DNA from: Longimicrobiales bacterium
GTDB taxonomy: Bacteria; Gemmatimonadota; Gemmatimonadetes; Longimicrobiales; Gaopeijiaceae
Direction of reading: 5' to 3'
DNA length: 64,000 nt
NCBI GenBank assembly: GCA_963664435.2
Contig: CAXXKM010000003.1
Location: 512,001 to 576,000, forward strand
Position 1 is the stretch's first letter, and the number at the start of each line of letters is the position of its first letter. The notes under the pieces are model-generated. The model did no database searches and was not told where the DNA came from. It saw nothing but the letters and a program-made list of their open reading frames with translations. Shown piece by piece: positions 27,902 through 47,255 of this stretch. Position numbers and translations under genes: made by a program.

Positions 27902-27926
27902 CCCAAGTTAGGCTGCGGCATCGACG

Positions 27927-28182: not shown

Positions 28183-28199
28183 TTAGGCGGGCGTGGAGC

Positions 28200-28774: not shown

Positions 28775-28838
28775 GCATGCATGGACGATTGCGGCTTCGC
28801 CATGCGTTAACCATTCCACTTATGCGACACTACACTAG
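28775..28838 (-). mobile_element. Isolated IS630 left-end remnant
   Basis: Near copy of 39086-39149 (..CCATGCGTTAACC..CCACTTATGCGACACTACACTAG). Confidence 0.8.
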
Positions 28839-29731: not shown

Positions 29732-29789
29732 GAGTGCAGACCTTGTCGAGGGGAGTCACTCTGTCGGACGGCGTCATGCTGGCCGCAAT

Positions 29790-30055
29790 CTCAGCTTCCT
29801 GAGCGGACGGGTCGGCAGCGAGACGCCGATCTTGTGAGGGAGGGTCCGGCGCGACAAACCACCGGCCGAACCCAGGACGATCCGGAAACGCTCCACGCGT
29901 TACTGCGGGGTCGTGCGTACTCGAAACCCATCCCTCAAGCTCCTTGCGGTCCCCAGGTCGCAATCGCATCCTTCCAACCGTCTTAACCTGGCCATGCACG
30001 CAAGATAACGCCGCTTCACGCCATGCGCATGACACCTTAGTGCCGATACAACTAC
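29790..30055 (-). pseudogene. Degenerate IS630 5' fragment
   Basis: RLRPGDRKELEGWV is identical to the start of the intact IS630 transposase, then frameshifted. Confidence 0.8.
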
Positions 30056-30449
30056 GCAGATCGATACCCGGCCTGCCGTGCTTGAATGGAGGGAAAACCG
30101 GGTCGATTCGCGGAACCTTGCGGGACCGTATACGCTGCCCTTCCCCATGGGTAAGGGTGCGACTGTATGAATGAGTCCGTGCCCACCAACCGACGAGACT
30201 GGCCGTGGGAGTTCCGAGACCGTCGAGCCGCGCGGAGGTCGGCGGGGCCAGTTCGCTCAGCCCAGTTGACCACTGCCGCCGTGCTGGTTGACCGGCTGGC
30301 GCATCGTCGAGCTTGAGCAGAGATGTCTGAAGCGGGGCGGGGTCCGGCCAGCGGTTCGCGGCGGCGCTGAGTTTGACGCGAATGCCGGGGAAGCTCGCAG
30401 CCTCGCAGCCTAGACCAGACCCTCCGTTACCCCCCGGACGGTCGGGCGA

Positions 30450-32126
30450 TTATCCGGCATAGGGAATCCGGGATTCCCGTACCGTGACGTTCAATCGTCG
30501 CGCTTCAGGTCCGGTGAATGGGTTATCCCCCACGCATGGACCTAACACTACATCAACCGGATACACATCCCGTCCCAGCTCAATATACTCGCCACGGTTC
30601 GATGCGTCTCTCTTGATTCCCGGGTCTTTAGGCCACACGGTTACGACGATACGAGCTTCTCTCTCATATTCAAACTGCCGAGACTTGAACAGATATCGAA
30701 TCTCCTCCAGGAGAACCTTTACGCAGTTCGACAAGGCCGTCTTTTCTTCGTTCGACGAAACAGCATGCTGGAGCTCGGTTATGTGATACAGCGCTGGTCG
30801 AATCGTATCAACTAATCCTTGGGCATCGGCACCGTCGTATGCGACCTTGTAGAGCCGCGGCGTCAGCGCCTGCCATCGCGGAACATATTTCGTGATGGCA
30901 GGTGCGGCAAAAAGCCCTTCTGCGTGATACACCGATGCGGTTTCATGTGTGTTCGCCGTCTGTGAGAACACCGTACACGGGTACACCAAACACGCACCGG
31001 TTGCTTCGATTCCATCGGTTCTTCCGTATAGTCTCCAGTGTAATAGGTGGTCGTCAGCCGGTGCAGGCTCATTGGATCGGCCTTCGGGTCTGACAACAAA
31101 ACTCCCAATATACGCAGTCGGCAATCCGTGCTCGTCGTCACTGTCGAGAAACCCCTCCGCGATCTCTTCGCCGATTACGCTTCGAAGAATGGAACCTTCA
31201 GATGGATCATTCATTCTGTCGGCCCTGTGAACACGAAAGGGAGACATGTCCAGAACGAGCGCCTGCGAAGTTCCGAGTGACGTGTAATGGACCGCTGCAT
31301 CACGACTGTTGCAACATAGATGCTGTTTCACTTCGAGAACAGCTTGTCGGAGTGCACACAATGCTCGGAAAACCTCGGGTCTCCCTTCAACCTTGGGATA
31401 GCGTTCACAGAAAAAAGCGGCGAACGGGGTTTTGGTACGGCAATAGGCGATCGCGGACCTAGTGTCAGGTAACTTGTACATCTTGTCGAACCATGCCAAT
31501 GCTTCAACTGGGTCCTTCTTGTCGTCCAGGTACACCTCCGCCAGCGCATGGCAAGCGTCGACGTTTTCCTCGTGTGCGTCCAACGCAGCGACATAGGATT
31601 CTATCGCGTCACGTACTTCTCCAGCTTGGCGATGGGCATTCCCCTTCCAGAAGAGCGCATCGGCATTTGGTTGCGATGAGATTGCTGCGGTGAAACAACC
31701 GATGGCCTCTCTGGTCTTTCCCATCGCCAGCAGTGCTCGACCTAGACTGACTCTAACGTGCCAAGCTCCTCCCAAAGCGATGGCCTGACGGTAGTGGAAT
31801 ACACTGTTCTTGTGATCCTTCAACATGCCGTAGACGGTTCCGATTGCGTCGTGAACGTCCGCATGAGGTCTTATCGAGAGGCATCCCTTGAAATAGTCTA
31901 AAGCCCTCCGAGGTTCCGAATCGAAGAGATGAAGAAGGCCCAGCTTGTAGTACGCATCGGCTGCACTGCCACGGGAGATGTGCGGTGAAGCGACGGCGGC
32001 GTTGAGTGAATTCACCGCATTGACCCAGGAAGTGAGACGGCCTACCGTATCGGTTGCCTTGAGGCAGTCCATCCAGCTCGCGATCCCTTGGCGATAATCG
32101 ACCTCGCCACTGCTTGTTGGCGTCAT
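30450..32126 (-). CDS. TPR repeat + DUF2971-like protein
   Basis: N-terminal TPRs; HYTS, MNDPSEG, WRLYG, FKSRQFEYEREAR; ATG overlaps the upstream stop (ATGA). Confidence 0.75.
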   Translation of the reverse strand: MTPTSSGEVDYRQGIASWMDCLKATDTVGRLTSWVNAVNSLNAAVASPHISRGSAADAYYKLGLLHLFDSEPRRALDYFKGCLSIRPHADVHDAIGTVYGMLKDHKNSVFHYRQAIALGGAWHVRVSLGRALLAMGKTREAIGCFTAAISSQPNADALFWKGNAHRQAGEVRDAIESYVAALDAHEENVDACHALAEVYLDDKKDPVEALAWFDKMYKLPDTRSAIAYCRTKTPFAAFFCERYPKVEGRPEVFRALCALRQAVLEVKQHLCCNSRDAAVHYTSLGTSQALVLDMSPFRVHRADRMNDPSEGSILRSVIGEEIAEGFLDSDDEHGLPTAYIGSFVVRPEGRSNEPAPADDHLLHWRLYGRTDGIEATGACLVYPCTVFSQTANTHETASVYHAEGLFAAPAITKYVPRWQALTPRLYKVAYDGADAQGLVDTIRPALYHITELQHAVSSNEEKTALSNCVKVLLEEIRYLFKSRQFEYEREARIVVTVWPKDPGIKRDASNRGEYIELGRDVYPVDVVLGPCVGDNPFTGPEARRLNVTVRESRIPYAG

Positions 32127-32533
32127 ATGTCCCTGCTCGACACCGTCCGGTAAGTGATTGGCCGGCATCCTCCGTTGCTCCACTGCTCCTCTTCCGCGGC
32201 CTTGCAGACTGGGAAGGCGATTACGTCGGCGTTGACCATACCGAAATCCCACGCGCGGTCATGATCCGAGGGGCTATGGGACATCGACAGATCGGGCCTC
32301 GTCTTCGCACGGCTCTCGACGCGAAGTCCGCACAGCTCGCAAACGAGGTCTGGGATACGGACCCGCTTGCGCTTGACATCCTTCCAGAGCTTCGTGTCCA
32401 TCGCGCCGCATTCGAACTCGACGATGCGGTGGCCCAGCCGCTCGAGGTCCTGCGCCACTTGTCGGCTGCCCATCGCGCCGAGGGCTATCTTTCGAAAGAA
32501 ACTGGAATCAGGCTTGAGTGCGAGAGGTGGCAT
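32123..32533 (-). CDS. Short PD-(D/E)xK-like protein, possibly truncated
   Basis: RIPDLVCELCGLRVESRAK motif with CxxC. Confidence 0.5.
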   Translation of the reverse strand: MPPLALKPDSSFFRKIALGAMGSRQVAQDLERLGHRIVEFECGAMDTKLWKDVKRKRVRIPDLVCELCGLRVESRAKTRPDLSMSHSPSDHDRAWDFGMVNADVIAFPVCKAAEEEQWSNGGCRPITYRTVSSRDI

Positions 32534-33212
32534 GATGTGAATCTAACCAAAGGCTCTCGGGCCAGCGAACGAAGGGGAACCCCCGCCAGCCTTCACCGCT
32601 ACAAGACCGATCCTGCGGCCTAGGGACTGCCCAGACTGTTTCCCCGAGGGCTGGTTTGTTGGGCTGGTCCAGGGCCCCTGCGGAGCGTTCACTTGCATCC
32701 CTTCCCCTCCTTCGGGCGCGATTACCGTCGGTCGTCCGAACGGCGCACGCTGCACAGGCGCTGGTGGCACCGGTTGCGAACCCCTGGTTCGGTGGCGCCG
32801 CGGGCTGCAACGGGGCAGCCGCACTCCTCCGGGCTACGGCCGCTTCCGGAGCCGTTCTCGCATCCCCATAAGCCCACGGCTCTCGCGGATCCAACCCTGG
32901 ATTTCGGGCCTCGAGCCCATCGGGATTCGTGACGACGACCGTGTGAACGAACCAGCCAGGACAACTTCCTCGACGCGTGCGAAGTTGCGTTGACGACCTC
33001 ATCCATCAGCCCCACTGCGTCCGCCGGACCACCTTGCACTCCGCCGCATCGGCGAGCGTCACGTGGTCCAGAAGCGCCACGTAATTGACATTCTTGCCCC
33101 TGAGACTCATCACTTCTTTGTCCGTCAGTGTTTCTCCTTCCGCTCCTCGGACTACACCAGCCTGTAGCAAAGCAACTCTGGCCAGTTACGTCTCGTGGCC
33201 AGCTTTGCCATC

Positions 33213-34104
33213 CTATTCTTGGGTATGCGTCCCCTCTCCCTCTTGCTGTAGTTGACGATTGAGTTGTGTCTGCATCATCATCGTAGTGAACCAATAATCG
33301 AGGTAACTGAGAGGTTTGATCTCCGCACGCTGTTCTAAACAATGGTCGATCAAGTTGGTAGCGAACCAGAGAAACGAATACGCCTGCGTCGGCGGTAGAG
33401 CGGGCGCTCCCAACTCTCCAACGGCCATGTAGGTGGAGCCCGTGAACATGGTACCCCTGTCCAACGGCACACTCCTTCGCTCACCGGGAATGACCATACC
33501 CTTTCCGAGCAGGTAGAACATGTTCGGCCAGTATTCGCGCCGGACCTCCTGCATCTCGTCGTTGGCGACTTCCGCTAGCTTCCCAAGTCCCCAATCGGAA
33601 TCGTAGGCGAACACGGCGTAACACAGTTTGGCGCCGGCATCAGCGATCTGGTCTCTCTCTACCGTTGGCCAACCGAACAGCTTCTTGATGCTGATGCAGT
33701 TGATGGCGGCCTCTCGGACAGTAGACCTCGTTAGGTTTGACTTCACTTGAATCGATGCGACACACGACTCGATTGGGTAGTAGTCCTCGTCCGGCAAGAT
33801 CCTACCTGCGACATTCCGATCTACAAACAGGAGATCCTGTTCCTTTGCTGGCAGCCATGTATCGATTGAGGCCGAATCCCTTTACCACGGACACCGTCCG
33901 CGGCAGCATCTGGGCAAACAAATTCTGCAGCGGGTTCTCCCGCGATGAACCCCTATGCAGTGGATGATCTACGCCCGACTTCTGTTCGCCGAGTGCCTCT
34001 AACACTACCAGCGCCTTCTCAAACCACTGGGGCATTTTCGACGCGTCGATACTCATCCCGGGTTGCAGCTTTTGGACCGCCGATTGGAACTCTTCCCTGT
34101 TCAA
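33213..34104 (-). pseudogene. DUF6602-like nuclease, frameshifted at ~33845
   Basis: H..RG..RE..L..LP in one frame; EQDLLFVD..PIES..IQVKS.LT in the next; a single extra A joins them; AAGGAG RBS before TTG. Confidence 0.65.
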
Positions 34105-34259
34105 TTTCAGTCTCCTTTTGGTTTTCGCACACTGCCTCGGCAGAGAGCGTTACCGCGATTCGGTTCCCGGTAAAGCTAATGGAGGCCAAGGGACCGCCGG
34201 GGCTGCGGGCAACCTCGTTTCTGGCAACGGGGCACGCCACAACATCCCACGCGGTGCCG

Positions 34260-34390
34260 GAAGCGGCGCCCCCACACCTGCCGGAGCAGCGTCTCGGTGG
34301 TGATGATCCGTCCTCCGGCTGCCGACAGGTCGCGCCGCAGGTCGAACTTGGTGGTGGTGAGCCGGACCTTGCGGTCGCGACGCTCACGCT
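34260..34390 (-). pseudogene. OmpR-type winged-helix remnant
   Basis: VRLTTTKFDL..LS..GGRIITTETLLRQVWG. Confidence 0.5.
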
Positions 34391-34464
34391 GCACAGGCGT
34401 TGGTGGCCGGTTATGGATCCTCTTTGGGGGATGTTCCCCTCCGGCCTCCAGACCGTAGACGGCC

Positions 34465-35040
34465 TCAGCCGCTGGCGTGTGCGTGTTCTTCAGTGTCATG
34501 CGGCTCGACGCGCTCTCCGGCAACGAAGCATGTTTCCAGATTATCGGGAACCGGTGTGCCGGTGACTTCGGACATGGCCTCCATCAACTCGGGGAAATGG
34601 ACGGTAAGATGACCGGGCTTGTCCAGCATCTGATTCAGCCACTTCATGACCCTTGAGTCCTCGACGAAGACACACCTAGCTCGGTTCAAGAGCCCCGGTA
34701 TCGGACTGTATCGGTCGTGCTGATACCTTGGCGTCAACCAGTGCAGGTTACTCAGCAGATCGAGCATCAGGTCCCGTTTTTCGGCGACCGTGACCCTCTT
34801 TCGTTGCCACCGCACCAGCAAGAACAGGACGATGCCGACGGCGACCCATGAGGCCGACGCGATCCACACCCAACTGCCCATGGTGTCGGTTACTTGCGTG
34901 TACACACGCAGGGCTACCGGCGGGATCCCGACGGCCGTAATCCCCCGCCACGCGGCGCCAGCACCCTTGATGAACGCCCCCATACGCTTCGCGCGGTTGA
35001 GCGCGCTGCTTTCCTCGACCCTGCCCGGTTGCTTGCCCAT
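34465..35040 (-). CDS. Hypothetical membrane protein
   Basis: 191-aa ORF with a hydrophobic segment followed by a soluble domain. Confidence 0.5.
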   Translation of the reverse strand: MGKQPGRVEESSALNRAKRMGAFIKGAGAAWRGITAVGIPPVALRVYTQVTDTMGSWVWIASASWVAVGIVLFLLVRWQRKRVTVAEKRDLMLDLLSNLHWLTPRYQHDRYSPIPGLLNRARCVFVEDSRVMKWLNQMLDKPGHLTVHFPELMEAMSEVTGTPVPDNLETCFVAGERVEPHDTEEHAHASG

Positions 35041-35059: not shown

Positions 35060-35650
35060 GGGGCGTGGTCCACGAGGTCCCCCGCCATACCGATCCGGTG
35101 CAAATGCTTCGAGGCGGCACCACCAACGCACGCTGAAGACAGGCGCGTGGGAGAGGTGTGTGCGGGCCGTGGGTCGCCCGTAGTTCGGTCGCAACGGTCC
35201 CACCCAAGTTTGGCCGTGGCCCAGTTGGCCTCCTAGTCGCTCTTTGAGCGGCGCATGAAAGACCCCTGCCGACCCGTCGTTCTCGAATCCCACGTCGGCT
35301 CAGATGACCGCGACATTCTCGGAGCGGCGAAGCATGGCGTCCCGCATCACTGAATGAGCGCCATGCCCACGCGTCTGCGGTGGCGGGCCGTGCGCGTCCT
35401 CGGTCCGACCGCCCAGGGTCCGGTGCACGTCAGATGGGCGGTAGTACGGATCGCCGCCACCGCCCGGGCCGTCAGCGCGGCAGCCTGTTTCGTGGTGCGG
35501 TCTTTCGCAGCCGGGCCGGTGATGCCCAGGACGCGGCACACCCCTTTGTTGTCGGCCGGGTTCGCGTGTCCCGCTTCGCGGTGATGGTAGCGGATGGCTG
35601 CTTGGCCATGACGGAACAACGAAGGTAACAGGCCCTCGGCACACCCCTGC
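35060..35650 (-). pseudogene. Degraded tyrosine recombinase
   Basis: Fragments across frames: HHREAGHANPADN, KQAAALT, VMRDAMLRRSE, ADVGFENDGS. Confidence 0.65.
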
Positions 35651-35912
35651 CTCCCGCCCCGCCACGATGCGAGCGCTGCCCAATGCGACGGGCATGCTCC
35701 TTGCAAGAGGTCTCAGCCAGTCCGGCAGGCCGAACGCCGATTCAGTCCGGTCGGCCGGCCGCGGGTTCCCTAAGGAACGCGGCGAGCCCTGCCGGGTGTG
35801 AATAAAGAGAGCGACTGGACGGGCCCAGTGATTCGACATTGGCCCCAAAGACGCTCTCAGACGGGAGAGGACGCCCGAATGGGCGATGTCCTCAGCGATA
35901 CTCCGGTCCGTA

Positions 35913-35944
35913 TTGCGCACGATAACTGGATTTATCGCGCGCTA
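35913..35944 (+). repeat. lox-like recombination site (left)
   Basis: TTGCGCACGATAA-CTGGAT-TTATCGCGCGCTA; 30/32 identical to the reverse complement of 37111-37142. Confidence 0.85.
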
Positions 35945-35979
35945 CGGCGATGTAATCGCTTCGCTATCACGCGATTACG

Positions 35980-36008
35980 AGCTTATGCGACCGCGGTCTC
36001 CCGCGCAA
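35980..36008 (-). promoter_or_regulatory. Outward-facing sigma70-type promoter inside the invertible segment
   Basis: Minus strand TTGCGC-17 bp-TAAGCT, followed by the hairpin GTAATCGC..GCGATTAC. Confidence 0.55.
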
Positions 36009-36089
36009 TGGTCTGAGAGAGAGGTCCGGGAGCAGCGGTCATGCCGACCGTTGGCCGTATGTTCCTGAACCCCGATGACGAGGCGATCT

Positions 36090-37073
36090 TCAGCGCTGCT
36101 GCCTGGCGGCCAATTGTGCCGCGCCGCTGCGTCGCGCCAGCAATCGCTCGCCGTAGCGTTGGACCATCCGCGCACTCTTCCAGCGCCCGGCCTGCAGGAT
36201 CGCCGGCAACTCGATTCCGCAGGCAATCATGTCTTGGACCGGCCCCACGCGCGTGCTGTGCCCCGCCAAGGCGTCCACAGTGTCGGCGGGAAGCCCGGCA
36301 CGCAGGGCCATTGACTTGTAGATGCGGGGCACCTGACTCGGCGGGAGTTGCTCCCCCACCGAGCCGTCCTTGCGCACCGAACGGAACAACCGCCCCTCAG
36401 CGGTCCCGCTGCGGCCGAGCCATATCTTGACGATCCTCACCGTGTCGCGCGCGAGAAAGAGCATGGCGCCTGCCCCCTCGGGATCCGTCTTGCTCGTTCG
36501 CACGAGCAGCGTTGCGGAACCATCGGCTTCCTCCACGAGGTCGGACACGTCCAGCGACACCAGCTCGGATCGCCGCAAGAGCGTGTCGTAGGCCACGGCT
36601 AGCAGCGCGCGATTCCGGGCGTCGATCAGCCGCTTTCCCGCCGCCTTGATCAGTCGGTTCCGGAGCGGCCAAGTGAGCCCCGTCACCTGAGTTTGTCTGC
36701 GCCCCCGGTTCCGGTACATCCGCTGGAGGGCCAGCTTCACGGCCGTGCTGTCCGCCGGGTTCGGCAGGCGTAGCGTCTTGTGGAGCGTAGCGATGCTGGA
36801 GACGTAGCGGCGCACGGTGGCCGGAGCCCTGCTGCTGCCCATGTCGTCGATGAAGGCGATCAAGGTGTTGGCGCTCGCGGGCACGGCCACCGTGCCGTCC
36901 TGCTCGCACCAGACGAGGAATACCCGCAGGTCGGCCCTCAGCGCCCGTTCCGTGTTGCGGCTGAAGGCGCTGCTAACCGTCTCGAAGAAGCGAGCTAACT
37001 GCTCCGCCACCTCCGCGTCTGATTCTGCACCGGTCAAGGCATCTATATGTGGTGTTGTGTCTGCATCTGGCAT
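36090..37073 (-). CDS. Cre-like tyrosine recombinase
   Basis: LLRRSEL, SKTD, GHSTRVG, AGRW, RY catalytic set; GGAGG RBS. Confidence 0.9.
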   Translation of the reverse strand: MPDADTTPHIDALTGAESDAEVAEQLARFFETVSSAFSRNTERALRADLRVFLVWCEQDGTVAVPASANTLIAFIDDMGSSRAPATVRRYVSSIATLHKTLRLPNPADSTAVKLALQRMYRNRGRRQTQVTGLTWPLRNRLIKAAGKRLIDARNRALLAVAYDTLLRRSELVSLDVSDLVEEADGSATLLVRTSKTDPEGAGAMLFLARDTVRIVKIWLGRSGTAEGRLFRSVRKDGSVGEQLPPSQVPRIYKSMALRAGLPADTVDALAGHSTRVGPVQDMIACGIELPAILQAGRWKSARMVQRYGERLLARRSGAAQLAARQQR

Positions 37074-37110
37074 CAAGTGGCCTCCGGTTCGGTCGCAAGG
37101 ACCGCGCGTC

Positions 37111-37142
37111 TTGCGCGCGATAAATCCAGTTATCGCGCGCAA
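37111..37142 (-). repeat. lox-like recombination site (right, inverted)
   Basis: TTGCGCGCGATAA-ATCCAG-TTATCGCGCGCAA: perfect 13-bp arms, asymmetric 6-bp spacer. Confidence 0.85.
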
Positions 37143-38009
37143 AACTCCCTGCGAAACAGGAGGCGAACTCGAGGATGAACGAGGATGAACATGATTGGTC
37201 AAAGGACTAAGCTGGATGGATTGGCGCGCCTCGCGCGTCCGTGGCAGGCGACACTCGCCCTGACCGTCGCCCTGCTGGCGGGCACCGGGACTGCTGCGGC
37301 ACAGGACACCATGCCCCCGGGGCTGGAGTACGCGAGGATCGACGGGACGACGCTGACACTCCGATTCGATAAGCCGGTGGGGTTAGGGATGCCCAAGCAG
37401 GTCGTGCACGGGTTCACGGTCGCCGGGATCTCGGACAGCGCCAGCGTGCATCCGACTGAGATGAAGTGGAACGCCTGGACGGCCACACTCGAATTCGACA
37501 CGCGCGCGGAACCGGGGCAGACAGTCACGGTGAGCTACGATCCGGACGAGGTCCCCAACTCGCCCCCCACTCCGGAGCACCCGAATGGGCTGCCCGCGGC
37601 CCTGGTCTACACCGACGGCACCTTGGTGCCGAAGTTCTCCGACGCGCCGGTGACCATCCTGGCTCCGAAGCCCGCGACGGACCTCACGTTTTCGAACCAG
37701 TTCGGGTTGACAGTCGATCTGTCCTGGACGCCGCCCGTCCATCCCGAGGGCGTGGTCGCCAAGGTGGTAGTTGACGTGTCGTCAGACTCGCTTTTCTACA
37801 CGATTGGACGTTGGGCAATCCATGCGGACTCGACCTCGATAACAATGATGATACAACACGGATGGGGTTACACTGATTACTTCCGCGTCCGGTACTTAAC
37901 CGACAACTATCATGCGGATTCCGAGGTCGCGACGTGGACGAGTACGCAGGAGGGTCTGAAAGCGCCCACCGGCTTGACGGCGTCGAACGCGACGCAGACA
38001 ACGGTCGAC

Positions 38010-39089
38010 CTAGTGTTGTGCCGCTAAAGCGGTGTTGGCACGGTTGACCTTAGCCAGGATGTCGCGAACGGTGGCGGTCCAGACGAAGGGTTTCGGGGCG
38101 CGGTTCCTGTGGTCGATGTAGGACGTGATCGCGTGGACGAGCTGGCCGACGCTGTGGACGGCGAGGCGTTTGAGCTGGCGCTGCGTGAGTTCGGAGAAGA
38201 AGCGCTCGACGAGATTGAGCCACGAGGACGAGGTGGGCACGAAGTGGAAGTGGACTCGGGGGTGCCGGTCCAGCCAGTCCTTCACTCGGGCATGCTTGTG
38301 GGTGGCGTAGTTGTCGAGGATGAAGTGCAGGTCGAGTTCCGGGTCGCATTGTTTTTCGACGGTGCGCAGGAAGCGGAGGAACTCCTGGTGCCGGTGACGG
38401 GGCAGACACTGGTGGATGACCTCTCCGGTGGCGACGTCCAGCGCCGCGAACAGCGTCGTGGTCCCGTGGCGCTTGTAGTCGTGCGTCATGGTGCCCGCCC
38501 GTCCCTTCTTGAGCGGCAACCCCGGCTGGGTCCGGTCCAGGGCCTGGATCTGGCTCTTCTCGTCGAAGGAGAAGACGATCGCCCGCTCCGGCGGCGCCAC
38601 GTAGAGCCCCACCACGTCGCGGAGCTTCTCGACGAAGCGGGGATCGGTGGAGAGCTTGAAGTAGCGCACCCTGTGGGGCTTCAGTCCGTGGGCGTTCCAG
38701 ATCCGCCCCACCTGGCTGTGATGCAGCCCCATGCCCTCGGCCATCAGGCGGGTGCTCCAGTGCGTCCCCCGCGGCGGTTTCTCCTCGAGCGTGCGGCGCA
38801 CGACCTCGGCCTCGACTTCGGGCGTGATCGTACTTCGCGGCCGACCGGGGCGGGACCGATCCTCAAGTCCCGCGAGCCCCTCTTCGTCGTACCGGTCCAG
38901 CCATCTTTGCACGGTCGGCAGCGAGACGCCGATCTCGCGGGCCAGCGTCCGGCCCGGCAAACCTCCGGCCGAACCCAGTATGATCCGGGCGCGCTCCACG
39001 CGCCGCTGCGGGGTCGTGCGGGCTCGAACCCATCCCTCGAGCTCCTTGCGGTCCCCGGGTCGCAATCGAATCCTTCGCAGAGCAGGCAT
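38010..39089 (-). CDS. IS630 family transposase
   Basis: DEKSQIQALDR, THDYKRHGTT, LDNYATH, SSWLNLVERFF. Confidence 0.95.
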   Translation of the reverse strand: MPALRRIRLRPGDRKELEGWVRARTTPQRRVERARIILGSAGGLPGRTLAREIGVSLPTVQRWLDRYDEEGLAGLEDRSRPGRPRSTITPEVEAEVVRRTLEEKPPRGTHWSTRLMAEGMGLHHSQVGRIWNAHGLKPHRVRYFKLSTDPRFVEKLRDVVGLYVAPPERAIVFSFDEKSQIQALDRTQPGLPLKKGRAGTMTHDYKRHGTTTLFAALDVATGEVIHQCLPRHRHQEFLRFLRTVEKQCDPELDLHFILDNYATHKHARVKDWLDRHPRVHFHFVPTSSSWLNLVERFFSELTQRQLKRLAVHSVGQLVHAITSYIDHRNRAPKPFVWTATVRDILAKVNRANTALAAQH

Positions 39090-39149
39090 GCATGGAAGAT
39101 AGCGGCTTCTCCATGCGTTAACCCTGCCACTTATGCGACACTACACTAG
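38010..39149 (-). mobile_element. IS630 family insertion sequence
   Basis: CTAG at both ends; imperfect IRs TAGTGTTGTGCCGC / TAGTGTAGTGTCGC. Confidence 0.95.
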
Positions 39150-41488
39150 CATGGACGCTACCGGATCAGGCCGTGTGGGTAGCGCAGGCGGCGTCGGTGG
39201 GTGAGGTCTGGAGCGAAGTGCAACAGCAGCAGGCGGATGGGACCTGGAGCAGGGTGGCGAAGCTTGCCGCCGACGCGGTGGCGCACACAGTGACCGGACT
39301 GAGCGCCGGGACGGCCTACAGCTTCCGTGTTTTGCTCGATTCGCGCAATAACTTCGCGGACTCGGAGCCCGTGTCCGTGACCACCTTGGACGACAGGCCA
39401 CCGCTGACGGCGGCGTTCCACGATGTGCCGGCCACGCACGGCGGCAGGCGCGCCGACTTTAGCTTCGAGCTTCGTTTCAGCGAGAACTTCCCAGGGAAGC
39501 TGCCCTACAAGAAGCTCAGAGACGAGGCGCTTAGTGCGACGAACGGCAAAGTGACGCGCGCGCGCCGGGCGGCGCAGAACCAGAACCAGCGCTGGACGAT
39601 CACGGTGCGGCCGCTCTCTTCCGAGGACGTGACCGTGACGCTGGCGGCGACGACCGATTGCTCGGCCGCAGCCGCGATCTGCACGCCGGACGGACGACCG
39701 CTGTCGAACTCCCCCTCGGCGACGATCCAAGGGCCGTCGGCGCCGGAGGCGACCGGCGTGAACGTGTCATCGGACGCCGGCGCCGACAGCACCTATGTCT
39801 TGGGCGATACGATTCGCGTGACGCTGACGTTCAGCCAGCCGGTGGAGGTGACGGGCACGCCGCAGCTGAAGATCGACATGGACCCGGCGCACTGGGGCGA
39901 GAAGTTGGCCAACTACGAGAGCGGCGGAGCGGACGACATGACGTTCGCCCACGTGGTGGTGGAGCCTAATCTTTCAACCCAGGGGATCGCGGTGGTCGCG
40001 AACACGCTTCGGCTCAACGGTGGCACGATCAGGTCCAAGGCGACAGGTGCGGACGCAGACCTGACGCACGCGGGGCTGGGCCACGACCCGAGCCATAAGG
40101 TGGACTGGCGGCAGTCGGCGAGCTCGGGTGACGTGGCCAGCGGCGACGTGGTGGAAGATCCGTCGATTCTCGCGGACGAGGCGCTGGCCGTAGCGGACGG
40201 GTTGAGCCCGGACGAGGCCGCCGCGGCGCTGTTCGGTGAGGGGACGCTCAGCGAGGCCCGGCAGGCCGCGCTCGACCTTCTGGGCAACCGGAATGGCGGT
40301 TACGATCTCGGGGACCTGCTCTCCTGGATCGAGCGCTGCCGAAGAGGTGAAGCCCGGTGCGGAGGAACACCTACCGATTCCAGTCCCACTTCGGGCGCCG
40401 CCCTCATCGGGGCTGCGGCAGCCGGACGGCGGGGGAACTCCAGGCGCCGCGGGCGCTCACGAGTCCGCGGCACGGGTCGCCGGGCGGGCAAGGCCGGATG
40501 GGCGCTCACCGTGCTGCTTGCCGCCGCAATGACCTGGTCGTGCACCGGTGATGCGATGGCGCCAACCGCCCCGGCCGCCACTGTACCGGATCCGGGTTTC
40601 CTGACGGTCGAGTGGAGTGGGCCGGCAGCGAGAGCCGATATCGGCGTCCTGCTGGAGTTGGAGGGTCCCGCAATCGACGCCGTGCGGGCTTCCGGGCTCG
40701 AGCTGTTCGAATCCAGAGCAGAGGAGCGCCATCAGATCGTCGTGGCGGGCGTCCTCCGGCCCGGTCCCGTCATGCAGTTCCATGTGCCGGACCGCAACCA
40801 GTTCGCTCTGTACCGGGTCCGCGTTCTACAGGTCACGGGTGAGGGCTACGGCCTCCGGGACCCAGCGGAGTACCGGGCCGTGGTCGTCACGAACTGACAA
40901 CCCCGACCAAGATGGGTCCCCCGACGCGCCCGACGAGGTCCGAGTGCGTCGGGGGGGCCACGCCCGCAGCGGCCGGGGCGCGCGCAGGTGTCGCGCGTCC
41001 CGGCCGCCTAAGGGTTGCACCAAGCAGCGCCTTCTTGAGGGGCCGGATGACGCCGGGTTGTCCAGTAGAGCCCGCGTCACAGCCAACGCCGGCCTCCCGT
41101 CCCGCCATTCCCGCGCCCGTGACCAACGGCTCGCAGCCGCTGTAGGGCCACCCGCGCGTGGCACATTCCGTCACGCGCGCGGTCGGGACGCACACGGCGT
41201 CCCCCTCCGTGCCTCGCATCGGCAGGCTGACCTAACTCCGTCCACCTCCCGACCATCCCGCCCGGCTTCCCGGACGGCATCCGGTTCCTGCGGAGTTTCG
41301 ATTTCCGTCGCGCCGCACGGCGCGTGTCCCGAACCGGTCGCACCCGGGCCGGACTCCGTCGGCCGAGCCTCGCACGCCACCCCCCGCTCTCGCATCCCCT
41401 CCCGCCTCCCGCGGGCGTGCGCCGCCGCACTGGCGGCGGGCTTCCGGGCGTCCCGGACAACGTCGGATAACTACTTACACCACGGACA

Positions 41489-41506
41489 CTTAGGAGATCT
41501 CCTAAG
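41489..41506. promoter_or_regulatory. Perfect 18-bp palindrome, operator-like, upstream of the ICE transfer operon
   Basis: CTTAGGAGATCTCCTAAG just before TTGACT. Confidence 0.5.
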
Positions 41507-41569
41507 AGTTGACTTCCTGGAAAAGGTCCTTTCAACGTTACGGGCCTTGACACGGCTGGATCGGCTCTC

Positions 41570-42121
41570 ATGCAGACCCTGGAGGAGCAATTCAACGCAC
41601 GGCTGAACGCGTTTCTGGGCAGCACGGGCATGAGTCCGACGACGCTCGGCATGCTGGCGGTGGGCGACCCGAACCTGCTGCGCCAGATCGAGCGGGGGCG
41701 CTCGCCGTCGCTCAGGACGGCGGACCGGATTCTGGCCTTCCTGGCCGCCTACGAGGCGGATCCGGCCGCTGCGATGGCTCGGTACGCCCGGCCTGTCGCG
41801 CCGAGGCCGGCGAGACGGTGGAGGAAGACGAACCGGAGTGGAGCGATGAGTAGAGACCGGAGGACTGCGAGAACGAGGCCGACGATCCGTTTCCTGCGGA
41901 TCTCGGAAGTCGAGGCGCTGACCGGCCTGTCGCGGACGACGATCTACGACTGGTCGGCGGACGGGCGCTTCCCCCGGGCGGTCCGGCTGAGCGGGCGCGC
42001 GGTGCGCTGGATCGAGTCGGAGGTCCTGGAATGGATGGATGAGCGGATCGAGCACGACCGGGTCGGGGACGACGCCCCGGCGCCGACACCACAACTGACT
42101 CCCGAGGAGGAGAGCGAATGA
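41570..42121 (+). CDS. Cro-like HTH fused to an AlpA domain
   Basis: GMSPTTLG..AVGDP..GRSP; RFLRISEV..TGLSRTTIY..GRFP..WIESEV. Confidence 0.8.
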   Translation: MQTLEEQFNARLNAFLGSTGMSPTTLGMLAVGDPNLLRQIERGRSPSLRTADRILAFLAAYEADPAAAMARYARPVAPRPARRWRKTNRSGAMSRDRRTARTRPTIRFLRISEVEALTGLSRTTIYDWSADGRFPRAVRLSGRAVRWIESEVLEWMDERIEHDRVGDDAPAPTPQLTPEEESE

Positions 42122-42405
42122 GAACGTTGTCGAGAACGCTGAAGGTGGCCGCCTGGGCCGCGCTGCTGGCGCTGACGCCGGGTGTGCTCTGGGCGCAGGG
42201 GACGAGCCCATGGGTCGAGGCGGTGGACGAGCTACAGACGCAGTTCACGGGTCCGATCGCGCGCGGGCTGTCGCTGATCGCGATCGTGGTGGGCGGGCTG
42301 ATGTTCGCGTTCGGCGAAGGCGGCAGCAAGCGCACGCTGGCCGGGATCATCTTCGGGATCGGGATGGCCGTCGGTGCCGTGAACTTCCTGGCCTGGCTGT
42401 TCTGA
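42118..42405 (+). CDS. VirB2/TrbC pilin
   Basis: Signal, SPW..L...FTGP, two hydrophobic segments. Confidence 0.85.
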   Translation: MRTLSRTLKVAAWAALLALTPGVLWAQGTSPWVEAVDELQTQFTGPIARGLSLIAIVVGGLMFAFGEGGSKRTLAGIIFGIGMAVGAVNFLAWLF

Positions 42406-42710
42406 TGCGGGGACTGAGGCGCTGGGCGGGCTACGCCGCGCTCAACCGGCCGCTGACCGTTCTAGGCGTCGAGCGGCGGCTGTTCCTGCTGGGCGCGACG
42501 CTCGCGCTCTCGGTGTGGAACGCGACGGCCTCGCTGGTGGCGGGCGGCGTGATCTTCGCCGGCTGCTACGGTGCGGGCTGGCTCGCTGGCCGGAAGGACC
42601 CGGCCATGCTCGCGGTGCTCCGTGCGGCGTCGCGCCACCCGGCGCGGTTCGATCCGGGCAAGTGGGCGGCTGAGCCCTGGCACCTGAAGGTCCGGGGAAC
42701 CGGCGAGTGA
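42405..42710 (+). CDS. VirB3/TrbD-like protein
   Basis: ALNRPLTVLGVER, TM pair, KDP; position before virB4. Confidence 0.8.
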   Translation: MRGLRRWAGYAALNRPLTVLGVERRLFLLGATLALSVWNATASLVAGGVIFAGCYGAGWLAGRKDPAMLAVLRAASRHPARFDPGKWAAEPWHLKVRGTGE

Positions 42711-45163
42711 GGGTCGCCGAGGAGTTTCGGGCGCACGAGGCGGCGGGCTCGCTGGCCGAGGAGCTGCCCTACTGGGGCTGGCTCGACGATGGCCGCACCT
42801 GCCTGGCGCGCTCGGGCGAGTTGATCGCGGCCGGCCGGCTGTTGCCCGCCGCCGTGGACGGGCGCACGCCGGAGCAGGTCGACCGGGTGCTGGGGCTCTG
42901 GCAGCGGCTTCTGTCGGGACTCGACCCGAGCGCGCGCCTCTACTTCTATCTGCTCCGGCGCCCGGCGGCGATGGCCGATCCGGCGGCTGCGAACGTTTCC
43001 GAGATCGCGTCCGTCTCGGGGCGTAAACGCCGTTTGTTCCTGGCCCGGCGGGTGCAGCGGCTGGACGCCTACGTCGTCTGGTCGCTCGGGTCCGCTCTCC
43101 GTCCGGTGGCCAGGCGCACGCGGTCCGGACCGCTGGCCCGGCTCGCCCGGCTGCGCAAGCGACGGAGGAAGGGCGCGCCGACGTACCTCGCCTCCGAGGT
43201 CGAGGCGGCGGCGGACCGGTTCCGCGCGATGGTCGAGGCGGGCCGCTCGCTGGTGGCCGAGCACACGCCAGTCGAGATGCTGGAGGCCGTGGAAGCGTCC
43301 CGGCTGCTGTCGGAACTGATCAACCGCCCGGGCATGGCGTGGGACGGCGCGACGGGCAGCGGCATGAACTGGCGGCTCGCACTGTCGGAGCTGGAGGCCG
43401 AGCGCAGTCACCTGAAGCTGGACGGCGAGCCGGTGATCCTCTACTCGCTGTTGTCACCGCCGGGCCAGGCCCACGCCAACCTGCTCAAGGATCTCTACTG
43501 CCTCGATGCCACGTTGACCGTCTCGCTCGAATGGCGGCCGTGGACGGTCGAGGCGGCCAGGCGCCGGATCCGGGGCGCGCAGCGGCACTACTTCTCGCGG
43601 CGCTACTCGATGATGGCGCACGTGCAGGAGACCGAGGGCACGGCATCGGCGATGGTCGATTCGGCCGCCGCGGTCGAGTCAGACCGGCTGGGCGCCGCGC
43701 TCGTCGAACTCGAAGCCGACGGCGTGGCCTACGGCGACGCGGCGCTCACCGTTGCGCTCCACGGCGAGCTTGAGGATATCGAGCGGCTGGACGGCGACGT
43801 GCGCCGCCTGTTCGCCGCGCACGACGCGAAGGCAGTCCGCGAGGGCTACGGCCAGCTGCCCGTCTGGTTCTCGCGGCTGCCGGCCCAGCCGCGCAAGCGG
43901 CAGGTCAGGACGGCGTTCGTCTCGGCCGGGCTCACCGCTTGCCTCGCGCCCGTGTTCGGGCCGCCGAAGGGTTCGGCCCGGTGCAAGCACCTGGACCGCG
44001 AGTCGCTCGCGGTGCTGGAGACGCCTTGGCGCACGGCGTACCACTACGACCTGTTCCGTGGCGACGTGGGCCACACGCTGATCCTGGGCGCGACGGGCTC
44101 GGGCAAGAGCTTCGCGCTCAACTTCCTGCTGGTCGAGGCGCTCAAGTACGGTCCGCGCGTGCTGATCCTGGACCTGGGCGGCTCCTACCGCTGGCTGACC
44201 CGGTTCCTCGGGGGTTCCTACCTCGAGCTCACGCCCGGCAGCGACGCCGATTCCGGGCTGAGCCTTCAGCCGTTCGCGCTGCCCGCGGGCACGCGCACGT
44301 TCCAGTTCCTGACCGGCTGGGTGCTCCGGCTGCTGAGGCTCGGGGGCTACGAGCCGACGGGCGCGGACACGAGCGAGATCCGCTCTCGGATCGAGGACCT
44401 GTACGCGCTTGGAGCCGAGCGCCGCACGCTGAGCGTGCTGACCGGCTCGCTTCCCGCCGCCATGTGGCCGGCGCTCAGCCGCTGGACCGGCGACGGCGTC
44501 TGGGGCCGGTTCTTCGACAACGCGCCGGTCGGCGGGGCCGACCTCGAGTTCCGCGACTGGCAGGTGATCGACCTGGCGGGCGCGGCGGAGCACGCGGACC
44601 TGTGCGAGGCGGCGCTGGCCTACTTGCTCGAACGGATGCGGCTGGAGATTGAGGACCCCCAGGAAGCCGCGCGGCTCAAGCTGATGGTCGTGGACGAGGC
44701 GTGGCGCTACCTGGCCGACCCGGCCGTGCTCGCCTACCTGGCCGAGGCCGCGAAGACGTGGCGCAAGAAGAACGCCGCGCTCGTGCTCGCCACCCAGTCG
44801 GCCGTGGACATGACCGGGACGTCCGGCGCATCGGCGCTGCTCGAGTCGATCCCGACGAAGCTGTTCCTGGCGAACCCCGAGTTGCCGGACGAAGTCGGCG
44901 TCGTGTTCCGGCTGAACGAGTCGGAGGTCGGGCGGATCCGGGAGCTGACGCCGAAGCGCGAACTGTATCTCCGGCGGCCCGACGAGGCGGCCGTGCTCCG
45001 CCTCGAAGTTGATCCGGAGAGCTACTGGCTCTACACGTCCTCGCCGCTGGACGCAGAGAAACGGGCCGAGGCCGTCAAGAGACACGGACTCGCACGGGCG
45101 CTTGAAGTCCTGGCGAACCCTCTCGCCCAACCCCCTACACCGAAGGAGGAAAGAACACGATGA
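42707..45163 (+). CDS. VirB4/TrbE ATPase
   Basis: GHTLILGATGSGKS, VDEAW, KTWRKKN, LATQS. Confidence 0.92.
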   Translation: MRVAEEFRAHEAAGSLAEELPYWGWLDDGRTCLARSGELIAAGRLLPAAVDGRTPEQVDRVLGLWQRLLSGLDPSARLYFYLLRRPAAMADPAAANVSEIASVSGRKRRLFLARRVQRLDAYVVWSLGSALRPVARRTRSGPLARLARLRKRRRKGAPTYLASEVEAAADRFRAMVEAGRSLVAEHTPVEMLEAVEASRLLSELINRPGMAWDGATGSGMNWRLALSELEAERSHLKLDGEPVILYSLLSPPGQAHANLLKDLYCLDATLTVSLEWRPWTVEAARRRIRGAQRHYFSRRYSMMAHVQETEGTASAMVDSAAAVESDRLGAALVELEADGVAYGDAALTVALHGELEDIERLDGDVRRLFAAHDAKAVREGYGQLPVWFSRLPAQPRKRQVRTAFVSAGLTACLAPVFGPPKGSARCKHLDRESLAVLETPWRTAYHYDLFRGDVGHTLILGATGSGKSFALNFLLVEALKYGPRVLILDLGGSYRWLTRFLGGSYLELTPGSDADSGLSLQPFALPAGTRTFQFLTGWVLRLLRLGGYEPTGADTSEIRSRIEDLYALGAERRTLSVLTGSLPAAMWPALSRWTGDGVWGRFFDNAPVGGADLEFRDWQVIDLAGAAEHADLCEAALAYLLERMRLEIEDPQEAARLKLMVVDEAWRYLADPAVLAYLAEAAKTWRKKNAALVLATQSAVDMTGTSGASALLESIPTKLFLANPELPDEVGVVFRLNESEVGRIRELTPKRELYLRRPDEAAVLRLEVDPESYWLYTSSPLDAEKRAEAVKRHGLARALEVLANPLAQPPTPKEERTR

Positions 45164-45996
45164 GACCCGCAACGATACCTGTCGCACTGACGCTTCTGCT
45201 GGCGGCGTTCCCCGCCGCCGCCCAGGAACACAAGTCGGCCAAGCAGCGCGACGAGGAGGCGACGTTCCTTCGCGTGCCCGCCGCCGAGGCCGGCCAGGAC
45301 CACATTTACTCTGTTCGCGCGCGCGTGAGGCACACGACCGTGATCGTGCTCCCGGCATCCGAGAGGATCCTCGACTTCGTGGCCGGCGACTCGGAGTACT
45401 GGCACCTGACGGGCGCGGCCAACGTCGCCTACCTGAAGCCCCTGGCCGAGGACGCGGCGACCAACATCGCGCTCGTCTGCGAGTCGGGCCGCATCTACTC
45501 GTTCCTCGTCGAGGAGCACGGCGACGAACCGCCGCACCTGATCGTCCGGGTCGAGACAGGCGCGGAGGCCGAGCGCATGTCCAGTGCGGGCGCGCCCGCG
45601 TTCGTCGCGCGGAGCGAGGTCGCCGCCTACCGGGAGATGGCCGCCGAGGCCGCCCAGGCGGCGCGCAGAGCGCAGGCGGCGGCGGACGCAGAGATCGAGG
45701 CGTTCCGCGCCTCCTATCCCACCCGGCTTGCGTTCGAGTACCGGCTGGACCGGGACGCGTCGCGGCGTCCGTTCCTCGTCGAGGCGATGTGGCACGACGG
45801 GCAGTTCACCTATCTGCGCTCGCACGCCCAGGAAGCGCCGGCCCTCTACGAGCTGCGGGACGGCGAGCCGAGCCTGGTCGCGTTCGACTTGGGCGAGGAC
45901 GGGCTCTACGTCGCGCGCCGCGTGCTGGGCGACGGGTGGCTCCAGATCGGGGACGAGCGGCTGCGCTGGCGGTTCGAGCCCGCGGATGCGCGATGA
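45160..45996 (+). CDS. VirB9/TrbG
   Basis: Signal peptide, YLKP, WHDGQFTY, APALY. Confidence 0.85.
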   Translation: MRPATIPVALTLLLAAFPAAAQEHKSAKQRDEEATFLRVPAAEAGQDHIYSVRARVRHTTVIVLPASERILDFVAGDSEYWHLTGAANVAYLKPLAEDAATNIALVCESGRIYSFLVEEHGDEPPHLIVRVETGAEAERMSSAGAPAFVARSEVAAYREMAAEAAQAARRAQAAADAEIEAFRASYPTRLAFEYRLDRDASRRPFLVEAMWHDGQFTYLRSHAQEAPALYELRDGEPSLVAFDLGEDGLYVARRVLGDGWLQIGDERLRWRFEPADAR

Positions 45997-47255
45997 GCCG
46001 CTGGAAGCAGTGGATCAAGGAGCCGAAGGGCGCGCTGCCGGGCGGCATCATCACGAAGGCGGGGATCGCGCTGATCGGCGTGCTCATCGCCGGCATGCTG
46101 TTCTCGTCGTCGCTCACGGGTCCCGAGGAGGACCCGATGGCTCCCGCCCCTTTCGAGGCGCAGGCCGTGGACGACCGGGCGGGCCGCTCGTTCGAAGGAC
46201 GGCTGCGCGCCGAGGCGGAGCGCCAAGTCCTGCGGGCTGCGGCCGACGATGCCCGCGCCGACAGCGAACGCCGCCAGGCCGAGGCCGAGACGGCCGGTGC
46301 CGGTGGCGCGCGTGGAGCCGGAGGCGGCGAGCTCGGAGCGGCAGGCACGGAGGATGAAGCGGTCGGGATGGTCCAGGCCGAGTACGAGCTTCGCGAGGCG
46401 CTGCGGCTCGAAGAGATCGAGCGGCGGACGCGCTCGCTCCGCTCGCTGCCCGTTGCCCGGACCTACAGGGACCCGAACGAAGCGCGGGACCCAACCCGCA
46501 CGTCGGCGGCCGAGCCCGAGGCGCCCGAGGCGGCGCTCGATGCAATGCTCGCGTCCTTCGGACAGTCGGTCGCCGCCTTGGAGGCCGAGATGCAGGCCGG
46601 GATGGCGGCCGAGGGGCTCCTGTCCGGCTCGCCGGAAGCTGCGCCGCAGGGAACTCGCGTCCCCGGCACGGCGGACCCGACCCTCAGTGTCCGGCCGCTG
46701 GACCCGCCGGGCTGGGAGCGGATCCGCGAGGGCTCGTTCCTCGAAGCCGTGTTGCTCACCCAACTCTCGGGCGAGTTCCCCGGACCCGTGCTCGCGATGG
46801 TGTCGGTGCCGCTGTATTCGGCCGACCGCCAGCGGGTCCTCGTTCCACGCGGCGCGCGCGTCGTGGGCACCGCCCGGGCCGTGCAGGACCGCGACCAGAG
46901 CCGCCTGGCGGTCGCGTTCCACCGGCTGCTGATGCCGGACGAAAGCTGGATCGACCTCGAGTTCGCGGGGCTGAACCAGGCGGGCGAGGGCGCGCTCAAG
47001 GACCGGGTGAGCCGCCACTACTTCTCGACGTTCGCGGCCGCGGGCGCCATCGGCGCGCTCAGCGGACTCACGCTGGCCGGAGCCTCACCCTACGGCCTTC
47101 GGGCCGGCGTCGGCCAGGGGCTCGGAGGGAGCGCCACCTCCGTCCTCGACCGGTTCCTGAACCGGATGCCCGAGATCACGATCCGCGCCGGCCACCGGCT
47201 CCGCATCTGGTTCACCGCCGATGCCCTCATTCCCACCCCCGACCCACACCAATGA
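45993..47255 (+). CDS. VirB10/TrbI
   Basis: N-terminal TM; EGSFLEAVL, VPRGARVVG, PEITIRAG. Confidence 0.85.
   Translation: MSRWKQWIKEPKGALPGGIITKAGIALIGVLIAGMLFSSSLTGPEEDPMAPAPFEAQAVDDRAGRSFEGRLRAEAERQVLRAAADDARADSERRQAEAETAGAGGARGAGGGELGAAGTEDEAVGMVQAEYELREALRLEEIERRTRSLRSLPVARTYRDPNEARDPTRTSAAEPEAPEAALDAMLASFGQSVAALEAEMQAGMAAEGLLSGSPEAAPQGTRVPGTADPTLSVRPLDPPGWERIREGSFLEAVLLTQLSGEFPGPVLAMVSVPLYSADRQRVLVPRGARVVGTARAVQDRDQSRLAVAFHRLLMPDESWIDLEFAGLNQAGEGALKDRVSRHYFSTFAAAGAIGALSGLTLAGASPYGLRAGVGQGLGGSATSVLDRFLNRMPEITIRAGHRLRIWFTADALIPTPDPHQ

Follow-up and report, generated by a model that had tools for sequence, protein, structure and literature searches.

The window analysed here is a stretch of 64,000 nucleotides (nt) from contig CAXXKM010000003.1 of a Longimicrobiales bacterium (assembly GCA_963664435.2), whose genome comprises three contigs of 4.5 Mb in total with a G+C content of 68%. 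It holds a cassette (35910-37145) in which the gene for a Cre-type tyrosine recombinase is enclosed by two lox-like sites in inverted orientation, and which abuts a gene for an adhesin-type surface protein. The initial annotation of this DNA had proposed a self-inverting promoter switch in front of that gene. The cassette is real and conserved, and comparison with its relatives indicates that it is very probably competent for recombination and likely inverts. Its parts, together with the segment adjoining it on the downstream side, are the following:

35657..35909, minus strand: conserved segment outside the downstream site (D-seg), with two predicted hairpins
35910..35945, no strand: downstream lox-like site (S_d), core 35917-35940 = GCACGATAA-CTGGAT-TTATCGCGC
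35946..36089, minus strand: non-coding tail of 144 nt, from the recombinase stop codon to S_d
36090..37073, minus strand: recombinase gene, 327 amino acids (aa), Cre-type tyrosine recombinase, intact
37074..37107, minus strand: recombinase leader of 34 nt, with a GGAGG ribosome-binding site
37108..37145, no strand: upstream lox-like site (S_u), 38 bp, 16-nt arms, spacer ATCCAG, core 37115-37138

The lox-like sites and the recombinase

An inverted-repeat search places a 33-nt inverted repeat, 94% complementary, at the two ends of the cassette (35910-35942 and 37113-37145). Both ends are themselves near-perfect palindromes, built as two-armed core sites around an asymmetric spacer. S_u reads GTCTTGCGCGCGATAA-ATCCAG-TTATCGCGCGCAAAAC and lies between the divergent recombinase and adhesin genes, whose start codons are 111 bp apart, while S_d carries the spacer CTGGAT and a single arm substitution (GCAC for GCGC). 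A search of the window for GCGCGATAA-N6-TTATCGCGC with up to three mismatches returned two matches, 35917-35940 and 37115-37138, and none in 100 shuffles. The repeat search, the pattern search and the shuffles all bear out the two inverted sites with opposed spacers (CTGGAT/ATCCAG) that the initial annotation had placed around an intact recombinase gene. Because an A and a T flank the 6-nt spacer, the sites can also be read as arms of 12/13 bp around an 8-bp spacer, as in loxP. The tail holds a further, degenerate palindrome, GTAATCGC-N11-GCGATTAC, at 35952-35978.

The recombinase open reading frame (ORF) is intact and likely starts with the ATG at 37073, preceded by the GGAGG. Its match to the Pfam family Phage_integrase (7e-15) assigns the enzyme to the tyrosine recombinases, and not to the serine recombinases of the resolvase/invertase type. 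In a search against all solved structures, the best matches were 17 chains of Cre or Cre-derived proteins (E 2e-28 to 2e-26, over residues 17-313), followed by XerD at only 6e-4; the NCBIfam models for XerC, XerD, and XerA gave 30-40 bits, against cut-offs of 220-371. Aligned to full-length Cre (7rhy_A numbering), R173, K201, H289, R292, W315, and Y324 of Cre all fall on identical residues, in the motifs LLRR, SKT, GHSTRVG, and RW...QRY. This list of catalytic residues is taken from PMC10250229. Since the similarity to Cre extends over the full length, the six catalytic residues are all present and the Xer models match far more weakly, the label "Cre-like" of the initial annotation is justified on the sequence comparison.

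Relatives of the module and their spacers

The window cassette (copy A) is one of three in the genome, the others being referred to as copies B and C. The three recombinase proteins are 95-100% identical to that of the window, and sites within two mismatches number exactly six in the whole genome, one pair per recombinase gene. All three genes are intact, and the ratio of nonsynonymous to synonymous divergence (dN/dS) among them and the related locus L008 is 0.07-0.15, a sign of purifying selection. Of the recombinase genes compared, that of copy A shows the smallest synonymous divergence from copy B. Among the three copies, non-coding conservation is highest in the leader (97-100% identity) and the upstream site (95-97%), and the tail is the least conserved part of the cassette, with 72-74% identity between copy B and copies A/C.

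A scan of one genome per species yielded 33 foreign loci with recombinase proteins 58-98% identical to that of the window, frequently several per genome. The source genomes are metagenome-assembled and bear the labels Gemmatimonadetes, Acidobacteria (Vicinamibacterales, Terriglobia, and Bryobacterales), and Gammaproteobacteria. The search of homologues for flanking site pairs, which the initial annotation had suggested as a check, found both sites in 30 of the 33 foreign loci, as in all three copies of this genome; in these 30, the first site precedes the true start codon by ~44-55 nt and the second follows the stop codon at 67-330 nt. The remaining three are L037, whose second site is displaced to 1.8 kb by an IS256-type (Mutator family) transposase gene in the tail (L037:5104-6441), L026, which is truncated by a contig end, and L025, in which no site is recognisable. 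An early stop codon is present in the frame of the recombinase match in L011 and L039. Metagenome contigs contributed only six loci (five with both sites), 400 further genomes of the same phylum 21 (20 with both sites), and 400 further genomes of the class of L012's genome 25 (all with both sites); these sets overlap, many of the 25 are re-finds, and the relatives are not independent of each other. A scan of a viral contig collection returned no relative of the module.

Most of the loci from Acidobacteria and Gammaproteobacteria hold a conserved lone outer arm, GTTATCGCGAGCAAAA, inside the tail, approximately 100 nt after the stop codon (for example L012:5028-5043, among the tails of L012-L040), where the window has the degenerate palindrome 35952-35978 instead. 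This lone arm is a possible accessory binding site. An alignment of 18 tails shows it together with a TTCAG..TTACG block, with no shared promoter-like pair found, and a six-frame translation of 13 loci gave no conserved small ORF in the tail or outside the downstream site.

Tyrosine recombinases exchange strands inside the spacer and require that the spacers of both partners match. Within a cassette, the two spacers are perfectly reverse-complementary in 29 of the 30 foreign loci and all three copies of this genome; L019, the exception, has a mismatch at one base. The same exact match is found in five of the six metagenome loci, 20 of the 21 loci of the same phylum, and 25 of 25 in the other class. 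It holds over at least 15 spacer variants (CTGGAT, CGGGAT, CTGCCT, CTGGAA, CTGTAG, CTGTAA, CTGGCT, CTGTAT, TTGCAT, TTGCTA, CTGGAG, TGGGAG, TTGTAG, CTGCCG, and CTAGAG). A subgroup (L057, L058, L060, L061, L068, and L069) has 7-nt spacers, CTGGTAG or TTGGTAG, between arms GGT(C/T)GATAA, which are likewise reverse complements at both sites. Within the genome of the window, the spacer pair is CTGGAT/ATCCAG in copies A and C and CGGGAT/ATCCCG in copy B, a change at the same spacer position of both sites.

The need for matching spacers is a premise also used in PMC10250229. Because the spacers match across so many variants, the two sites of one cassette are expected to recombine with each other, and the co-variation is strong indirect evidence that they do so often enough to stay compatible. 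Recombination between inverted sites on one molecule would in turn invert the segment between them. Spacer co-variation is therefore the strongest, although indirect, argument from which we infer inversion.

Adhesin-type neighbours and the conjugative-element-like unit

On the upstream side, most loci have a long outward-reading ORF that starts 16-350 nt from the site and usually begins with a signal-peptide or lipoprotein-type N-terminus. Domain scans of 32 of these ORFs found fn3, cadherin-like, Calx-beta, Big, or SWM domains in 21; four others are MauG-like, Sel1, TbpB-like, and LuxR proteins, and seven have no domain. Since the upstream proteins are mostly non-homologous at the DNA level, the association appears to be with a kind of gene and not with one gene. 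The link to a surface-protein gene, first suggested for the window alone, is in this sense conserved across phyla.

Conservation on the downstream side extends 80-280 bp from the site, within subgroups only, before homology is lost; when this segment was aligned for the 33 loci, no universal motif emerged other than the site itself and a short A-run. In one Gemmatimonadota subgroup, the downstream site is followed by a gene co-directional with the recombinase gene; in L036 (L036:5169-7502) it encodes a hybrid sensor kinase/response regulator with a DNA-binding output (GAF-PAS-HisKA-HATPase-REC-Trans_reg_C), and L056, L065, and L066 hold genes similar to it, matched via N-terminal translations only. 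The Terriglobia loci have a convergent LuxR-type gene on this side.

In the window copy, the cassette is followed on its upstream side by these features:

37185..38013, plus strand: adhesin 5' fragment, with a signal-peptide-like N-terminus and SWM_repeat; cut by an insertion sequence
38010..39149, minus strand: IS630-type insertion sequence of 1,140 bp, DDE_3 transposase 38010-39089, CTAG at both junctions
39146..40897, plus strand: adhesin 3' fragment, corresponding to residues 293-875 of the intact paralogue
40617..47255, plus strand: co-directional downstream genes, the first a 329-aa ORF without family match
41570-42121, plus strand: AlpA-type regulator
42707-45163, plus strand: VirB4/TraG-like ATPase
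45160-45996, plus strand: CagX/VirB9
ending at 47255, plus strand: TrbI/VirB10

The surface gene was correctly placed by the initial annotation: it starts at 37185, approximately 40 nt past the right site, and shows SWM_repeat and weak fn3 matches. What had been overlooked is that it is split, being interrupted after ~276 codons by the IS630-type element. A 40-nt stretch of this element occurs nine times in the genome, and the region of element copy C also holds identical copies of 1,140 bp. Immediately ahead of the adhesin start, copy A has a tandem duplication of 10 bp (37165-37184) that neither copy B nor copy C shares and that the contigs of the four sequencing runs compared also lack. The best-matching runs for the window include some labelled sponge metagenome; among the 21 runs listed, none was an RNA run.

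Homology between the three copies begins 258 bp (copy C) or ~1.5 kb (A, B) outside the downstream site and continues for more than 20 kb on the adhesin side. Because of this shared flanking homology, the cassette copies are best seen as parts of a larger unit that was itself copied, and not as independent insertions; the point at ~35657 where the homology of copy C with copies A/B breaks is probably the end of an element of ~21 kb. Each cassette copy lies at one end of such a conjugative-element-like unit. In copy B, the order is cassette, an 859-aa protein with fn3 and SWM_repeat, a 332-aa ORF, an AlpA-type regulator, a TrbC/VirB2 pilin, and a VirB4-like ATPase, followed by CagX/VirB9, TrbI/VirB10, TrbL/VirB6, VirB8, a TraG/TrwB-type coupling protein, ArdC, and a tyrosine integrase, with all genes from the adhesin through the integrase on the same strand. 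Such a gene order is typical of an integrative conjugative element with a putative ability to transfer; no relaxase family was matched in the annotation of the copy B unit. From this gene order, the cassette looks to lie directly upstream of a long operon for the adhesin and type IV secretion. In other genomes, L036 and L021 have TrbI genes at a distance of 12-20 kb on their adhesin side, and nine of 11 listed cassettes from five genomes checked have no TrbI gene within 25 kb, so that the link to conjugation genes appears partial and that to adhesin-type genes general.

Several other features of the window concern the history of the element and its surroundings. The 2,418 bp at 59721-62138 are 100% identical between copies A and B, in surrounding homology of 92-97%, which suggests a recent gene conversion between both copies. 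An 11.8-kb island at 47901-59721, between the TrbI and TrbL genes, is found in copy A only and carries McrBC-type (50227-51309) and P4-type integrase (58327-59613) genes; the latter was considered as the element's own integrase and rejected, since it belongs to this island. Adjoining the element end, the region 26000-35000 has a G+C content of 54-63%, compared to ~68-70%, and includes genes for an AAA_15/DUF3696 ATPase (25868-27433), a DUF5677 protein, and a TPR protein, as well as a DUF6602 fragment, and thereby looks like a foreign island of defence-like genes. A tmRNA gene with the tag peptide ANNHMAMAA lies at 9892-10240 on the minus strand.

Two foreign loci depart from the common arrangement of the module. 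In L010, a 1.7-kb segment (L010:2217-3960) holds a MauG-like di-haem peroxidase gene between a degenerate site (2262-2295) and the upstream site, both in direct orientation and with the common spacer CTGCCT. The original adhesin-side junction is kept beside the degenerate site, and only the last ~50 codons of the adhesin gene are left beyond the segment. This looks like the site-specific insertion of a circle at the upstream site. L017 is flanked on either side by downstream-type DNA, with the LuxR-type regulator gene included, in the form of a large inverted duplication; this DNA shares 99% identity with the downstream flank of L018, a locus on the same contig at a distance of 136 kb. These double flanks suggest an exchange between cassette copies; no reciprocal partner was found in its genome, which has only one other cassette, of the normal type.

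Orientation, transcription and possible functions

The explanation that we favour, with moderate confidence, is that of a self-contained Cre/lox-like inversion module acting as a biased switch upstream of adhesin and conjugation genes. The Cre-type recombinase would bind the two core sites that flank its own gene in inverted orientation, and their recombination would invert the 1.2-kb segment. The most probable role of the module is that of a strongly biased switch in which transcription of the adhesin and conjugation genes, of the recombinase gene, or of all of these depends on how the cassette is oriented. As the cassette stands at every locus seen, transcripts of the recombinase gene would run into terminator-like hairpins just outside the downstream site, and in the flipped orientation they would enter the adhesin gene. 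The predicted structure of D-seg is consistent with the first half of this proposal, with a minimum free energy of -49.2 kcal/mol and a z-score of -3.6. The hairpin noted initially at ~35866-35893 is recovered in the prediction and is followed by a second one, at ~35805-35858, with a U-rich run after it; this second hairpin is the only terminator-like match of the region (35829-35814, minus strand) and probably terminates the recombinase transcript. Of the self-inverting cassette as first proposed, inversion has gained support from spacer matching; a flipped form was not found, and control of the adhesin gene by a switch stays conjectural.

A number of observations weigh against the switch, among them the constancy of orientation. 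At all loci, the recombinase and adhesin-type genes are divergent, with the conserved downstream segment coming after the recombinase gene; no flipped copy was seen among the loci examined from the genome itself, from foreign genomes, from metagenomes, from the same phylum, or from the other class. Adhesin homologues were found only on the upstream side, and an all-against-all comparison of 121 flanks gave 723 upstream-upstream, 769 downstream-downstream, and 23 upstream-downstream matches, the last of which trace to the duplicated flank of L017, to the own flanks of L016 (a 71% inverted repeat), and to one weak match. Five metagenome loci and the 25 loci of L012's class are likewise collinear with the common arrangement. 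The proposed search for assemblies with the segment reversed, in all loci and in the contigs of four runs, therefore gave no flipped form. In the contigs over 35500-37600, no strand-changing joint and no loose ends at the sites were seen, which weighs little, as these contigs are fragmentary, broken near the sites by the three paralogous copies, have only two "skips" as joints, and drop minority forms. Consensus assemblies are compatible with a flipped fraction of a few per cent. With every locus examined in the same orientation, the description of the cassette as being now OFF is unfounded.

The signals for transcription also speak against the switch as initially drawn. No promoter was identified on either strand, and the one proposed is not conserved. 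At the 17-nt spacing given for an outward promoter, the minus strand does carry TTGCGC (36008-36003) and TAAGCT (35985-35980); each hexamer has three of six consensus matches (6/12 together), and they lie in the least conserved segment. A sigma-70 scan of 35500-37500 on both strands found no promoter-like site, these hexamers included, in a phylum whose members may use other promoter types, and inspection by eye around the upstream site revealed weak hexamers only, none convincing. The proposed promoter is present in copies A and C, but copy B, L008, L045, L046, and L048, all with intact adhesin genes, have lost it through substitutions and a deletion of 2 nt. Because the adhesin start lies only ~40 nt beyond the site, the adhesin promoter is expected either to overlap the site or to lie inside the cassette. 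The argument that little room is left for a promoter of its own, however, counted only 42 bp: the two start codons leave 111 bp between them, and the site itself might be overlapped by a promoter. Two points from the neighbouring genes add to these objections. Eleven of the 32 upstream neighbours scanned are without an adhesin-type domain, and the regulated target is uncertain because some relatives have a regulator gene downstream. Finally, since the insertion sequence breaks the adhesin gene, the switch of the window is without an intact target, although the module itself is intact.

Unregulated, freely reversible inversion by a Cre-type enzyme leads to both orientations at approximately 1:1. 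Given the constant orientation, a switch at this locus must therefore be strongly biased. This bias might arise from orientation-dependent expression of the recombinase, for example through a transcript that loses its terminator when flipped, or from selection for one state. Orientational control of fimE, whose transcript loses its terminator on flipping, is a precedent for the former. A more elaborate and rather unlikely version of the switch is that of a horizontally spread flip module in which transcription borne by the recombinase gene is directed, on rare inversion, into the operon for the adhesin and type IV secretion, and in which the recombinase, still being expressed, soon flips the segment back, so that the cells displaying the adhesin or competent for transfer would form only a small and shifting fraction. 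Under this version, the family would comprise more than 12 mutually incompatible natural spacer variants.

The invariant orientation and the genomic setting are also compatible with other functions. One that we regard as doubtful, although to be taken seriously, is the maintenance or integration of the element: the Cre-like enzyme would resolve multimers of an excised circular form, in the way Cre acts on the P1 plasmid, or integrate circles, with the second site merely tolerated or serving a Flp-like amplification, and with an incidental adjacency to the adhesin gene. Resolution or integration needs one site only and no match between the sites of one cassette, whereas the pair is kept almost everywhere and its spacers co-vary strictly. 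The cassette does lie ~260 bp from the end of a ~21-kb unit that holds type IV secretion genes, a coupling protein, ArdC, and its own integrase and that is present in three copies, and TrbI genes accompany L036 and L021 on the adhesin side at 12-20 kb; against this stand the nine of 11 cassettes without such a gene within 25 kb, and the lack of any third site elsewhere in the three elements of this genome. The L010 gene between direct sites, as after site-specific integration, and the downstream-type flanks on both sides of L017, suggestive of an exchange between copies, would both be at home in this explanation. An integron-like platform, with which L010, as the one locus with a single gene between two direct sites, could be compared, was considered and rejected: the window has no further sites and the genome only the six of the cassettes.

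It is less probable still that the sites act as operators, the recombinase binding the palindrome and repressing itself and the adhesin gene, with recombination rare or vestigial and the pair of sites kept by gene conversion from time to time. The position of the upstream site exactly between divergent start codons 111 bp apart would suit an operator, as would the conservation of the leader and upstream site (95-100% identity, the best of the non-coding parts) and the fixed orientation. This reading has to contend with a gene that is under purifying selection and keeps all its catalytic residues, and with a second full site 1.2 kb away, past the 3' end of the gene, which it does not explain. 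Cre-type enzymes read spacers little, and binding alone leaves the reverse-complementary spacers over at least 15 variants equally unexplained. Very improbable is an insertion-sequence-like mobile cassette of 1.2 kb, moved by its own tyrosine recombinase, with the sites as terminal inverted repeats. The three copies share more than 20 kb of flanking homology, both flanks keep their type elsewhere (an adhesin-type gene upstream, the segment of 80-280 bp downstream), and no empty sites, nor the cassette alone in unrelated contexts, were found among the loci examined. A unit of one gene within 33-nt inverted repeats, several copies per genome, and occurrence in three phyla are what such an element would exhibit; each end, however, is a full two-armed core site with an asymmetric spacer, and not a simple terminal repeat.

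The proposed inversion module shares features with several known recombination systems. With Cre/loxP, and also with Dre/rox and Vika/vox, it has in common the full-length similarity to Cre, the six catalytic residues, and a target beside the recombinase gene. Phage P1 uses a single loxP for circularisation and dimer resolution. Here, two inverted sites enclose the gene, the context is a chromosomal conjugative-element-like unit and not a phage, the arms are G+C-rich, and some relatives have a spacer one base longer. The sites of the module have GATA abutting the spacer, like the Cre-type sites of PMC10250229, where this motif next to the spacer is given as a feature of active sites.

The topology is that of Hin/hix from Salmonella and of Gin, Cin, and Pin, where the recombinase gene lies inside the segment, beside a gene for a surface structure. 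Those enzymes are serine recombinases that need a Fis-bound enhancer; the present one is a tyrosine recombinase of the Cre type, and a promoter inside its segment is only proposed. FimB/FimE-fimS, RecV from Clostridioides difficile, and the invertons of Bacteroides resemble the module in the use of a tyrosine recombinase, short inverted repeats, and control of surface proteins, and FimE exhibits a strong orientation bias. In these switches, the recombinase gene is outside a segment of 150-350 bp, the repeats are of 9-30 bp, and host factors are needed, whereas here full palindromic core sites enclose the recombinase gene; both orientations are observed there and only one here. The Flp/FRT system of the yeast 2-micron plasmid likewise combines a tyrosine recombinase with two inverted full sites on one replicon, and the third arm copy of FRT resembles the lone arm GTTATCGCGAGCAAAA in most relatives of the module. 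Flp serves copy-number amplification, with both isomers about equally frequent and the sites in 599-bp repeats that halve the plasmid, and it has no link to a neighbouring surface gene. The Rci shufflon of IncI plasmids such as R64 pairs a tyrosine recombinase on a conjugative element with a conjugation-related adhesin gene. It rearranges several C-terminal coding segments via many sites, unlike the module, which has only two sites, upstream of the gene, and exchanges no coding segment.

Site-specific inversion switches for surface proteins are well known. In the full-text literature covered, which does not extend to subscription journals, nothing was found that describes a natural gene of the Cre type lying between inverted lox-like sites next to genes for adhesins. 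What the present locus adds is a Cre-type gene within its own inverted pair of lox-like sites, conserved in at least three phyla and adjacent to giant adhesin genes. That the orientation is constant throughout the assemblies points either to a mechanism of bias or to a function other than a simple ON/OFF switch. The family is, in any case, a source of new Cre-type recombinase/target pairs with many natural spacer variants. If the cassette inverts, it would be a portable one-gene switch by which uncultured bacteria vary their surface adhesins, and in the bacterium studied here it might also gate a conjugation machine.

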